A DNA stretch of 64,000 nucleotides from an uncultured Chlamydiae bacterium (lineage in GTDB: Bacteria; Chlamydiota; Chlamydiia; Chlamydiales; Parachlamydiaceae): the NCBI GenBank assembly GCA_963754655.1, contig CAVWGN010000001.1, positions 1,472,001 through 1,536,000 on the forward strand, read 5' to 3'. Positions 50,546 to 60,974 of this stretch are shown piece after piece. The position numbers and the translations under genes were made by a program. Numbering within the stretch: the stretch's first letter is position 1; every line of letters begins with the position of its first letter. The notes below the pieces were generated by a model, which saw only the letters and a list, made by a program, of their open reading frames with translations, made no database searches and was not told where the DNA came from.

Positions 50546-53500
50546 ATGAGCTATTTTTCTAATTTGTTAATTTTATTTATTTCCTCTTTTCTTTTCAATT
50601 TCTCTTTTGTCCATTCAATTCATTCAGAGATGTCTTTGGAAAAAAAATTGAATTTATGTAGCAATTCTAATGGCTTAAATTCAAGTTTTTTTTCTGCCAA
50701 AAACCCGATTAAGTATTGGACAATATTACTTAGATATTCTCCAAGACTTGATCGGGCTTCTAGTCGAGAAAATAATCTTGAGATTAAGCCATTAAAATTC
50801 TGGGATAAGTTTACTAGATTTGATCCTAAAGATTTAGCTAACAACGGGGATAAAGCTTCTAAAAGAAGAGCTTCTAGTCGTAAAGGAAAAACCGGTCCAA
50901 CAGGAGCAAGAGGTGCTACAGGAGCAACAGGTGACCCAGGCGCAACGGGTGCTAACGGTGCAATAGGTTCAACAGGAATGAGGGGAGCTACAGGGGCTAA
51001 GGGTGCTGTAGGACCAACAGGCCCAACAGGAGCCAAAGGAACAATAGGAGCAAGGGGATCTACAGGTGCAACAGGAGCAACAGGCCCTTGCTGTACAGGT
51101 GCAACGGGAGCAACCGGTATTACGGGTGCAACAGGGGAAACAGGATCGACAGGTGCTACGGGCGTAACAGGTAATACAGGAGCAACAGGATCGACGGGAC
51201 CTATAGGAGCAATGGGAGCTACAGGTGCCACAGGGGTAACAGGTTCAACAGGAGCTACGGGACTTACAGGCGCGACGGGAGCTACGGGAGCCACAGGTCC
51301 AACAGGTGTGACAGGAGCGACGGGACCTACTGGAGCAACAGGTTCAACAGGTGCGACGGGATCTACAGGTGTGACAGGTTCAACAGGAGCTACGGGTGTA
51401 ACAGGAGCCACAGGTCCAACAGGAGCTACGGGTGTAACAGGTTCGACAGGAGCGACGGGACCTACGGGTGCAACAGGTGCTACGGGTGCAACAGGAGCGA
51501 CGGGAGCTACTGGTGCTACGGGTGTGACGGGACCTACAGGTGCGACAGGTTCAACAGGAGCTACGGGCGCGACAGGAGCTACAGGTGCCACAGGAACTAC
51601 GGGTGCGACAGGAGCTACAGGTTCAACAGGAGCGACGGGAGCTACTGGTGCTACGGGTGTGACGGGACCTACAGGTGCGACAGGTTCAACAGGAGCTACA
51701 GGTGCCACAGGAACTACGGGTGCGACAGGAGCTACAGGTTCAACAGGTTCAACAGGAGCAACGGGTGAGACAGGAGCCACAGGTGCAACAGGTTCGACAG
51801 GAGCGACGGGACCTACGGGTGCAACAGGTGCCACAGGAGCGACGGGACCTACAGGTGCGACAGGCGCTACTGGTGCTACGGGACCTACAGGTGCAACAGG
51901 AGCAACCGGAGTTACAGGCGCTACTGGTGCTACGGGACCTACAGGTGCGACAGGTTCAACAGGAGCTACAGGAACTACGGGTGCAACAGGTGAGACAGGC
52001 GCTACTGGTGTAACAGGTTCAACAGGAGCTACAGGTGTTACGGGCGCGACAGGAGCTACAGGTTCAACAGGTGTAACAGGTGCAACAGGAGCGACGGGAC
52101 CTACGGGTGCGACAGGAGCTACAGGTTCAACAGGTCCAACAGGAGCTACAGGTGCGACCGGACCTACAGGTGCGACAGGTTCAACAGGCGCAACGGGTGC
52201 TACTGGTTCAACAGGAGCGACGGGACCTACAGGTGCGACAGGCGCTACTGGTGCAACAGGTCCAACAGGAGCTACGGGTGCGACGGGACCTACAGGTGCG
52301 ACAGGTTCAACAGGAGCTACGGGTGCAACAGGTGCAACGGGATCAACAGGTCCAACAGGACCTACGGGCGCGACAGGAGTTACAGGTGCGACGGGAGCTA
52401 CAGGCGCAACGGGTTCTACGGGTTCTACGGGTGCGACAGGTTCGACAGGGGCAACCGGAGCTACGGGTGCGACAGGTCCAACAGGCGCAACGGGAGGTAC
52501 AGGTGCTACTGGTTCAACAGGTTCGACAGGAGCAACGGGTGCTACTGGTGCAACAGGTCCAACAGGAGCTACAGGTGCGACCGGACCTACAGGTGCGACA
52601 GGTTCAACAGGCGCAACGGGTGCTACTGGTTCAACAGGTCCAACAGGAGCAACGGGAGCGACGGGACCTACAGGTGCGACAGGTTCGACAGGAGCGACGG
52701 GACCTACCGGTTCAACAGGAGCCACAGGTGCAACAGGAGTGACGGGACCTACAGGTGCGACAGGCGCTACTGGTGCAACAGGTCCAACAGGAACTACGGG
52801 TGCGACGGGACCTACAGGTGCGACAGGTTCAACAGGAGCTACGGGTGCAACAGGTCCAACAGGTCCAACAGGTGCAACGGGATCAACAGGTCCAACAGGA
52901 CCTACGGGCGCGACAGGAGCTACAGGTGCGACTGGAGCTACAGGAGTAACGGGTTTTACGGGTGCGACAGGAGCAACAGGTTCAACAGGTGCGACGGGAC
53001 CTACAGGTGCAACGGGTTCAACAGGTACGACAGGTACGACGGGACCTACCGGTTCAACAGGAGCCACAGGTCCAACAGGAACTACGGGTGCGACAGGTGA
53101 GACAGGAGCAACGGGAGTTACAGGTGCTACGGGTGCGACGGGACCTACAGGTGCAACAGGAACTACGGGTGCGACAGGAGCCACAGGTGCAACAGGTTCG
53201 ACAGGAGCGACGGGACCTACAGGTGCAACAGGTGCCACAGGAGCGACGGGACCTACAGGTGCGACAGGCGCTACTGGTGCTACAGGACCTACAGGTGCAA
53301 CAGGAGCAACCGGAGTTACAGGTGCACGGGTGCGACGGGACCTACAGGTGCGACAGGTTCAACAGGAGCTACGGGTGCGACAGGCGCTACAGGTTCAACA
53401 GGTTCAACAGGTTCAACAGGAGCAACGGAGTTACAGGTGCTACGGGTGCGACGGGACCTACAGGTGCAACAGGAACTACGGGTGCGACGGACCTACAGGT

Positions 53501-59500: not shown

Positions 59501-60974
59501 AGCTACAGGTTCGACAGGTCCAACAGGAGCAACGGGACCTACAGGTGCGACAGGTTCAACGGGAGCAACCGGAGCTACTGGTGCGACAGGTCCAACAGGC
59601 GCAACGGGAGCTACTGGCGCAACAGGAGTAACCGGAGCGACGGGAGCTACAGGTGCAACAGGTTCAACAGGCGCAACGGGTGCTACTGGTGCAACAGGTC
59701 CAACAGGCGCAACGGGACCTACAGGTTCGACAGGAGCGACGGGAGCTACAGGTCCAACAGGCGCAACGGGAGCTACTGGCGCAACGGGTTCTACAGGTGC
59801 AACAGGTTCGACAGGGGCAACAGGACCTACAGGTGCGACAGGTTCAACAGGCGCAACGGGTGCTACTGGTGCAACAGGAGCCACAGGTACAACAGGTTCA
59901 ACAGGAGCTACAGGTGCGACAGGTTCAACAGGAGCCACAGGTGCTACTGGTCCAACAGGTCCAACAGGCGCAACGGGAGCTACAGGTGCGACAGGTATAA
60001 CAGGCGCAACGGGTGCTACTGGTGCAACAGGTTCGACAGGAGCCACGGGACCTACAGGTGCAACAGGTCCAACAGGAGCAACGGGAGCTACAGGTGCGAC
60101 AGGTATAACAGGCGCAACGGGAGCTACTGGTGCAACAGGTCCAACAGGAACTACGGGTGCAACAGGAGCCACAGGTGCAACAGGTTCGACAGGAGCGACG
60201 GGGTCTACAGGAGATACGGGTGCCACAGGTCCAACAGGAGTAACAGGTGCTACGGGTGCAACAGGAGCAACGGGAGCTACAGGTTCAACAGGAGCGACGG
60301 GAACTACAGGTGCGACGGGAGTTACAGGTCCAATAGGTAAAGCAGGAACACTAGGTGCGACTGGACCGACAGGAGCAACAGGTACTACAGGAGCTACAGG
60401 CGCGACAGGGGCAACAGGTGTCACGGGTCCTACCGGGCCTGGATCAATACTAAATTCACTTATCTTTAATGCGCAGACAATGAATCAAGGAAGTGTTTTT
60501 AATCCTACGAATAATATCACTTTAACTGTATCTGGTAGTATTAGTAGTCCTCCAACGATTACGGGCTGGAATTTAAAATCTACTAGTGCAGCTATTACGC
60601 TTACTTTTAAAATTCCTAGCAATTACGTTGATGGAAGCCTTACTAATATAATTTTATCTTTTTCTACCACCTCCACCTCAACACCTACAGGTTCTTCTGG
60701 TACTGCGAATATCCAGCTTCAGGCTCAATCTTGGCCTGCTAATACCAATACTAATATCGTTTGGCTTCCACTTTATGCTGTGATAATGACAAGATCTGTT
60801 GTGAATCCATCAACTGGTGGAACCCTAAATTATTATACGATTACCTACACGGGCTTGACAGGAATTTTTGCTGCAAATAATTTAGCTGCCTTAAGATTTT
60901 CTGTAGTCAATACAGGAACGACACCCGCAGATAATTTTAGTATGAATGCTATAGAATTCTTATATGCTAATTGA
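50546..60974 (+). CDS. Giant secreted collagen-like (Gly-Xaa-Thr)n protein; reading frame broken by about 20 small deletions between ~53327 and ~57097
   Basis: Signal-peptide-like N-terminus; GXT repeat from 50885 to ~60443 continuing across frames; non-repetitive Ser/Thr-rich ~175-aa C-terminal domain ending at stop 60974. Confidence 0.85.
50885..60443 (+). repeat. ~9.5-kb tandem 9-bp repeat (ggN NNN acN)
   Basis: Units such as ggtgcaaca, ggagcgacg, ggacctaca, ggttcaaca throughout. Confidence 0.97.

Follow-up and report, generated by a model that had tools for sequence, protein, structure and literature searches.

The window analyzed here is a 64,000-nucleotide (nt) stretch of contig CAVWGN010000001.1 (positions 1,472,001 to 1,536,000, forward strand) in assembly GCA_963754655.1 of an uncultured Chlamydiae bacterium; coordinates without a genome label are positions in the window. 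Between hemB and a TPR gene lies a giant gene for a collagen-like protein, in which a leader and a short non-collagen region are followed by a very long Gly-X-Thr repeat and a C-terminal domain (CTD). In the assembly as given, this gene appears as two open reading frames (ORFs), 50546-53782 (1,078 amino acids [aa]) and 53679-60974 (2,431 aa), and the repeat changes frame at 22 sites, here called hops. From the ATG to the last codon the gene measures 10,426 nt, which, with about 21 missing bases added, gives a product of ~3,480 aa. The leader has a hydrophobic stretch at residues 6 to 24 (Kyte-Doolittle mean up to 2.25), and hydrophobic leaders also start the paralogs and the CTD-family relatives described below. 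A basic patch closes the N-terminal region, residues 95 to 113 having 7 Lys or Arg versus 2 Asp or Glu. This region matched no family in the Pfam and NCBIfam searches and, by its likeness to the N-terminal regions of Legionella Lcl and Bacillus BclA, may serve as an anchor or attachment region.

Tandem Repeats Finder reports the repeat as one array, starting at 50900 or 51095 and ending at 60420, with periods of 9, 18, 27, and 36, and the Pfam Collagen model PF01391 matches both frame-clean parts (E values of 7.7e-119 and 9.8e-163). The 9,550-nt span corresponds to 1,061 triplets. A frame-by-frame walk counts 1,054 Gly-X-Y triplets, with Thr in the Y position of 1,038 (98.5%) and not a single Gly substitution. 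The X position is mostly Ala (629 triplets, 59.7%), followed by Ser (175, 16.6%), Pro (163, 15.5%), Val (36, 3.4%), and Thr (26, 2.5%), and charged residues are nearly absent from the helix. The repeat has a G+C content of 60%, versus ~39% for the background and the genome, and an AT skew of 0.35 to 0.40. Its codon use departs from that of the flanking genes (GGT, 51% versus 19%; GGG, 2% versus 18%; ACA, 65% versus 40%). At the DNA level the repeat is degenerate: self-identity is ~76% whatever the offset, and of the ~10,400 40-mers in the region just 1,197 occur more than once, so the array is not a stack of identical units. Because 1,054 triplets keep their Gly, a single interruption (GPCCTG) breaks the periodicity within the frame segments, PF01391 matches, and the DNA is degenerate, we conclude that the collagen-like gene is real and under selection. 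With its long, once-interrupted Gly-X-Y run and an adjacent non-collagen domain predicted to trimerize, the product has the features of the PF01391 class. The repeat unit is free of stops in most frames and for this reason generates long antisense and off-frame ORFs; two such antisense ORFs, 50620-53238 (minus strand, 872 aa) and 57074-60424, were rejected as coding, and the same pattern recurs in another chlamydial genome (G238).

An earlier note on this DNA, made from the letters alone, had outlined the same gene: an array of ~9.55 kb and ~1,060 triplets, a signal-peptide-like N terminus, a basic patch, a GPCCTG interruption near the start of the helix, a beta-rich C-terminal domain, and a repaired length of ~3,480 aa. 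Each of these agrees with the figures above and with the features in the table, the last domain through a model with 10 strands.

Features of the giant collagen-like gene, in window coordinates
Feature	Position	Strand	Basis
Start codon and signal-peptide-like N terminus, residues 1-24	50546..50617	+	First ATG past an in-frame TAA
Non-collagen N-terminal region, ~89 aa, basic patch at its end	50618..50884	+	Composition
Gly-X-Thr collagen-like region, ~1,061 triplets	50885..60434	+	Tandem Repeats Finder, PF01391, frame-by-frame count
GPCCTG, two-residue Cys-Cys interruption, 22 triplets into the helix	51083..51100	+	Pattern scan
Zone of all 22 frame hops, probable assembly deletions	53320..57096	+	Frame walk
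CTD, 179 aa, all-beta jelly roll, predicted homotrimer, likely distal head	60435..60971	+	Structure model
Stop codon TGA	60972..60974	+	

The family of the CTD is rare. Searches of Pfam (E values up to 0.01) and NCBIfam libraries found no entry for it, and this absence is one of the new aspects of the gene. Sequence searches of the PDB with the CTD and with its alignment returned only noise (4b97, E value of 0.063; 4bpx, E value of 0.38). A phmmer search of 1.84 billion representative proteins gave four hits, one of them an unrelated repeat protein. The three real relatives are two short Gly-X-Thr collagen-like proteins and one protein without collagen, none with a viral feature. No relatives were found by the CTD alignment in genome, metagenome, and viral contigs, by tblastn in phages, or, by sequence and alignment, among longer proteins, the last being a weak search in which collagen words crowd the candidates. 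Within the phylum, the CTD was detected in 6 of 400 genomes, or in 7 if the results are read less strictly, and these belong to four or five families. For example, G238 has two adjacent intact CTD collagen genes of 1,465 and 1,403 aa (352 and 333 Gly-X-Thr triplets), and G229 has an intact one of 763 aa. In the 1.0-Mb chlamydial genome G262 (L009 and L012, G262:C7:1-6716), six small CTD genes of 247 to 290 aa stand in tandem, each with a leader, a Cys, a short Gly-X-Thr helix, and the CTD. The only form found in the genus of the host is free of collagen (260 aa). In two of the genomes (L013, G238:C1:1484000-1499000; L015, G160:C19), the CTD collagen genes are followed by homologs of ~183 to 221 aa and by secreted YVTN-like beta-propellers, which may be a conserved neighborhood; it is absent beside the window gene.

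A structure model of the CTD built on a 16-sequence alignment, which replaced a poor 4-sequence model (pLDDT of 56.6), has 10 beta strands, a pLDDT of 82.2, and a pTM of 0.80. When three copies were modeled as a complex, the median score was 0.93, versus 0.00 for the best of three controls; contacts agree between the three runs to at least 91%, with a partner pLDDT of at least 86. In the calibration of the complex scores, 20 of 30 same-chain pairs of solved structure attained the mark, compared with 1 of 23 solved single chains; the CTD run departed from this calibration in relying on a custom alignment and on three copies. Each copy contributes its N-terminal strand to the modeled interface, which fits an exit of the helix along the axis. 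The CTD is thus predicted to trimerize, in line with the C-terminal trimerization proposed in the earlier note. Compared with the PDB by VIA, the model looks like a jelly roll of the carbohydrate-binding-module (CBM) or galactose-binding type, with many ties at Z scores of 9.8 to 10.2 (CBM35, CBM36, BT0996-C, laminin LF, and Cry domain III). Foldseek against the PDB lists lambda J tips and Bdellovibrio fiber ends at low TM scores. The BclA- or C1q/TNF-like head that had been suggested did not turn up among the top 50 matches of either search, which by itself does not exclude a family that is not listed. The viral structure library BFVD ranks highest the "collagen triple helix repeat" proteins of Klosneuvirus (E value of 3.4e-7, TMq of 0.64) and Catovirus (TMq of 0.58); the best 50 rows include seven names of the collagen-like or collagen-repeat kind and also phage tail-fiber tips. 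Language-model neighbors in the Protein Atlas are hypothetical phage proteins at 0.94, with a recognition value of 1871, below the mark of 2300, and serve as a lead only. A predicted trimeric head that is rare and most like that of giant-virus collagen proteins is a concrete object for structural and glycan work.

Taken together, the locus probably holds one intact chlamydial gene, its hops being assembly errors, whose ~3,480-aa product would be secreted as a homotrimeric collagen-like fiber, and we propose that this fiber is a surface adhesin. A Sec-type leader would take the chain across the inner membrane. The jelly rolls, predicted to trimerize, would then initiate the triple helix, which would zip up from its C-terminal end toward the N terminus, the direction described for collagen in PMC11923368. 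At the far end, the N-proximal GPCCTG may form interchain disulfides that clamp the helix against fraying; a DsbB match in the genome is marginal. Helix stability would probably require O-glycosylation of the ~1,040 threonines, because charges are nearly absent and Pro accounts for just 15.5% of X residues. This suggestion also leans on what is reportedly the case for BclA and Riftia collagen. According to PMC11923368, (Gly-Pro-Thr)10 is a coil unless galactosylated, an observation used there to explain Thr-rich bacterial collagens; the same source describes TGA and TGP triplets as frequent in bacteria and viruses and cites O-glycosylation of Thr in BclA. Export across the outer membrane might use a type II-like secretin, for which the genome has two secretin-family frames (E values of 1.2e-84 and 2.3e-53), neither of which reaches the TIGR02517 cut-off; other parts of the export route are conjectural. 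The basic N-terminal region would hold the fiber at the cell surface with the lectin-like trimeric head distal, forming a "hair" that could promote adhesion to and uptake by amoebae, by analogy with Lcl, the spore collagens of Pasteuria and Bacillus, and the collagens of giant viruses. The attachment of environmental chlamydiae to amoebae and their entry into these hosts are poorly understood.

The intact trimer could instead be released, as matrix in the inclusion lumen or the environment or as aggregation material, or it could stay in the periplasm. The translations show no LPXTG, lipobox, or beta-barrel anchor, and Lcl is described in PMC11162425 as also occurring in supernatants and vesicles and as driving auto-aggregation and biofilm formation. 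However, a basic non-collagen N-terminal region combined with a distal lectin-like head fits the anchored stalks of BclA, Lcl, and phage fibers, and a fiber of ~0.9 micrometers cannot lie extended in the periplasm. Release or periplasmic retention is therefore considered unlikely.

The length of the fiber follows from the repeat. At a rise of 0.286 nm per residue, the helix would measure ~0.91 micrometers, so that the arithmetic behind the earlier figure of 0.9 micrometers is correct. This is about three times the length of type I collagen and, with the chlamydial setting and the head family, one of three new aspects of the gene. The claim of exceptional size stands only in part: ~1,060 triplets make the longest helix among those examined, but the difference is one of degree. 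Intact frames in other chlamydial genomes reach 778 triplets in 2,542 aa (G387) and 626 triplets in 2,271 aa (G382), G299 has a modular frame with 358 triplets in at least 3,229 aa, and bacterial collagen chains of up to 6,000 aa are reported in PMC11923368. The gene might also be real and its length an artifact of an expanded or collapsed repeat, a possibility compatible with the other alternatives discussed here. The array is spanned by no read or contig, its middle block holds clear consensus errors, and the segment 57000-59500 contains near-identical duplications (identity of 0.94 to 1.00 over 150 nt). Conversely, the array is mostly unique at the 40-mer level, it is hard to see why an assembler would create 9.5 kb of triplets that have diverged, and long frames occur in the chlamydial genomes just listed. 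An artifactual length thus has a small chance of being the right explanation.

The next alternative is that the gene is a recent pseudogene with real frameshifts, which would yield the 1,078-aa N-terminal product or none. It takes the two ORFs and the 22 hops of the assembly at face value, and it accords with an accessory locus that is non-syntenic in same-genus genomes and surrounded by mobile-element debris. The hops themselves have a different character. All but one of the 22 are −1 shifts, that is, single-base losses in one direction. Fourteen fall at junctions of ACG with GGN, where a G is apparently lost, four at GCAACA or TCAACA read as GCACA or TCACA, and four are complex; 18 lie at a short run of G or A. 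They are confined to a single 3.8-kb block, with none in the other 5.8 kb of the repeat; the first 257 and the last 368 of the Gly-X-Thr triplets counted in the frame walk are hop-free. Nine flanking genes (OpcA, G6PD, permease, RuvX, CTP synthase, KdsB, metallo-hydrolase, WaaA, and HemB) are each covered by Pfam matches over their full length. Short-read contigs from a public soil run (X1) are identical, with 0 differences, to the unique flanks 50177-50487, 50656-50823, 60232-60382, and 60780-60930, and they restore the frame at three hop sites, with a G after 54215, an A after 55559, and an extra G after 55194. Two further runs (X2 and X3) gave only matches at 90 to 95% identity, which come from collagen genes of other organisms.

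Because the hops form a single block, run in one direction in 21 of 22 cases, are contradicted by X1 bases at three sites, and leave every Gly in place, they are read as assembly consensus errors, and the gene is probably intact at ~3,480 aa. Neutral decay with so many indels would not spare the Gly codons of 1,054 triplets, and each hop with visible short-read evidence is intact in the reads. A pseudogene is accordingly improbable, even though the reads contradict just 3 of the hops. Inactivating frameshifts, which the earlier note had named as a possible refutation, are thus countered by a frame-restoring base at those 3 of 22 hops. Programmed frameshifting was rejected, since the 22 sites have no common slippery signal. 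A failure of polishing through multi-mapping was likewise rejected as the cause of the error block, because this block is not the most repetitive part of the array and multi-mapping would not explain the location of the errors. As a guess, a long-read bridge between short-read contigs would explain that location. The case shows how long-read consensus errors can split one giant repeat gene into seeming fragments.

The GPCCTG motif had been proposed to tie the fiber covalently to the disulfide-linked envelope, with a role in flotation or shielding. Chlamydial envelopes are disulfide cross-linked, and the motif is conserved in three collagen-like genes of the genome: besides the giant gene, it occurs in two smaller paralogs, in one of which (L003) it is found at both ends of the helix. 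It matches once in the window versus 0 times in 100 shuffles. The exact motif is limited to 2 of 61 genomes of the family, with 4 copies in this genome and 6 in G410 (0 for the reversed-pattern control), and cysteines at helix ends are common to the paralogs and the CTD-family relatives. In the giant gene the motif sits 22 triplets inside the helix and not in the N-terminal region. Its position inside the helix or at helix ends favors chain-to-chain clamping. Cys-Cys after Gly-Pro is also the arrangement of the cystine knot of collagen III, Gly-Pro-Cys-Cys-Gly, which likewise stands at a helix end. In PMC12107170, this knot is described as holding the three chains together, nucleating refolding, and preventing fraying of the end. 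The likeness has limits: the knot of collagen III is C-terminal, whereas GPCCTG is proximal to the N terminus, lies 22 triplets inside, is followed by Thr-Gly, and has putative interchain disulfides. The envelope protein family OmcB (PF03504) was not found here, in a search that was equally empty in every control genome. By analogy with the knot, an interchain disulfide clamp is the simpler and more likely explanation of GPCCTG, and an envelope tether appears very unlikely.

Several observations weigh against an intact gene for a surface fiber. X1 is one run with a contig depth of 3 to 6x and may be the very sample behind the genome. Its evidence covers just 3 of the 22 hops, a count that leaves aside the hop sites that X1 matches without difference. 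The best non-self identity is 0.88 to 0.92 in the hop block versus 0.94 to 0.99 in the error-free segment 57000-59500, and no read or contig covers the total length of the repeat. No RNA data set containing the stretch was listed. As for the product, the leader has no basic n-region, and the CBM-like fold is very common, a Z score of ~10 being barely above the 7 to 8 typical for unmatched models. Neither an anchor motif nor a gene for a glycosyltransferase or for dedicated secretion was found beside the gene; in the flanks, WaaA is the sole glycosyltransferase. Finally, hemB has no collagen gene beside it in three same-genus genomes, and the gene is flanked by repeats and an IS630 remnant. For these reasons it is accessory and could be dispensable.

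Among known systems, the closest in setting is Lcl of Legionella pneumophila, a Gram-negative intracellular bacterium that infects amoebae. As described in PMC11162425, Lcl has a leader, an N-terminal helix, collagen repeats, and a trimeric glycan-binding C-terminal domain, in the same order as the parts of the window gene, and is displayed as a surface "lollipop" dependent on type II secretion. In contrast, its repeats in that source are charged 15-mers, GPQGLPGPKGD(K/R)GEA, and not Gly-X-Thr, and Lcl is far shorter. Its head is a DUF1566 domain, and the CTD studied here has no Pfam match. BclA and the other collagens of the exosporium and of Pasteuria are like the giant gene in having a Gly-X-Thr helix with Thr in Y, an N-terminal attachment, and a trimerizing beta head at the C terminus. 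The spore collagens of Bacillus and Pasteuria form a hair-like nap for host attachment. They differ in that the BclA head is C1q/TNF-like, that BclA has tens of triplets as opposed to ~1,060, and that Gram-positive spores have no outer membrane to cross.

A third group, the collagen-like proteins of giant viruses (Klosneuvirus KNV1 A0A1V0SLI4, Catovirus CTV1, Megavirus, and the Cedratvirus "GXT repeat-containing collagen-like protein"), shares the Gly-X-Thr repeats, a beta-sandwich, and the amoebal setting. The viral beta-sandwich is the best structural match of the CTD in the viral library. No link at the sequence level appeared in the phmmer search of representatives, in viral contigs, or in tblastn against phages, and common descent is conjectural. 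Phage tail fibers, Bdellovibrio fiber tips, and CBM6, CBM35, and CBM36 are likewise beta-sandwich jelly rolls, and the fiber tips end trimeric fibers. However, their identity to the CTD is 6 to 16%, their Z scores are tied near 10, no phage genes lie near the window gene, and no sugar-binding residues were identified in the comparison. A phage or tailocin fiber was rejected as an explanation of the gene, with no phage genes nearby.

The host is a Parachlamydiaceae-type environmental (soil) chlamydia related to amoeba symbionts. Its genome (G000, the one that holds the window) comprises 3.16 Mb in 2 contigs, is 96.7% complete, and contains Hc1 (PF07432). The WaaA encoded in the window has 12 named relatives, all 12 of them in Parachlamydiaceae, Parachlamydiales, or Chlamydiae metagenome-assembled genomes or in "Ca. 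Protochlamydia" (44 to 77% identity), which upholds the attribution of the collagen-like gene to a chlamydia. The same genome encodes three smaller collagen-like paralogs of ~267, 669, and 349 aa, each with a leader, cysteines where the helix begins, a Gly-X-Thr helix, and a tail rich in beta structure. In the 669-aa paralog, the C-terminal domain (L003:2609-3013; G000:C1 ~1559049-1559453) matches PDB 9h38_A with an E value of 3.3e-11. This 148-aa chain, from an entry with 21 chains, was given the name "Flagellar hook-length control protein FliK" on deposition, an odd label for a collagen head; the match suggests that 9h38_A may be a solved filament or fiber relative. A Gly-X-Y scan also picked up two Gly/His-rich runs (GGGGGGH...) at G000:C1:2687012-2687825, which are not collagen-like.

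Across the phylum, PF01391 is present in 156 of 401 sampled Chlamydiota genomes, including 37 of 45 in the family of the host and 50 of 90 in the largest family, and in 1 of 30 in a family with genomes of 1.0 to 1.2 Mb. Collagen-like genes are thus a candidate class of surface or secreted fibers that separates environmental lineages from the small-genome family. A text search of the literature found no paper on chlamydial collagen-like proteins, and "chlamyd" does not occur in the review PMC8968730. The setting in Chlamydiota is a new aspect, whereas the kind itself, a bacterial Gly-X-Thr collagen with a trimerizing C-terminal head, is known. A wider proposal is that environmental chlamydiae as a group wear glycosylated collagen "hair", the longest of which (~0.9 micrometers) exceeds the cell, and that their heads share ancestry with giant-virus collagens as a shared or converged device for phagocyte uptake. 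We regard this as doubtful; if it is true, bacteria and giant viruses would have traded, and also converged on, a common means of being recognized and engulfed by phagocytic protists.

In the immediate surroundings of the giant gene, promoter and terminator scans gave nothing above shuffles except for a palindrome borne on a repeat. Downstream, on the minus strand, 62281-62841 encodes a 186-aa ORF without a Pfam or NCBIfam family that has a leader and three "(S/D)xGNxVxVW"-like repeats. Also downstream is a degraded IS630/Tc1-type transposase in two fragments (61262-61468 and 61645-61752), recognizable by a helix-turn-helix-like N terminus (NF033545, E value of 1.4e-4) and a "DNASFH...LPPYSPD" piece. 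The intergenic region between hemB and the collagen gene contains, at 49960-50222, one copy of a repeat of 140 to 210 nt that has 103 matches in the genome, often as inverted pairs. Within this copy lies the perfect palindrome with a 20-bp stem (50175-50222), and the X1 depth at the repeat is 139.9, versus ~1 to 4 nearby.

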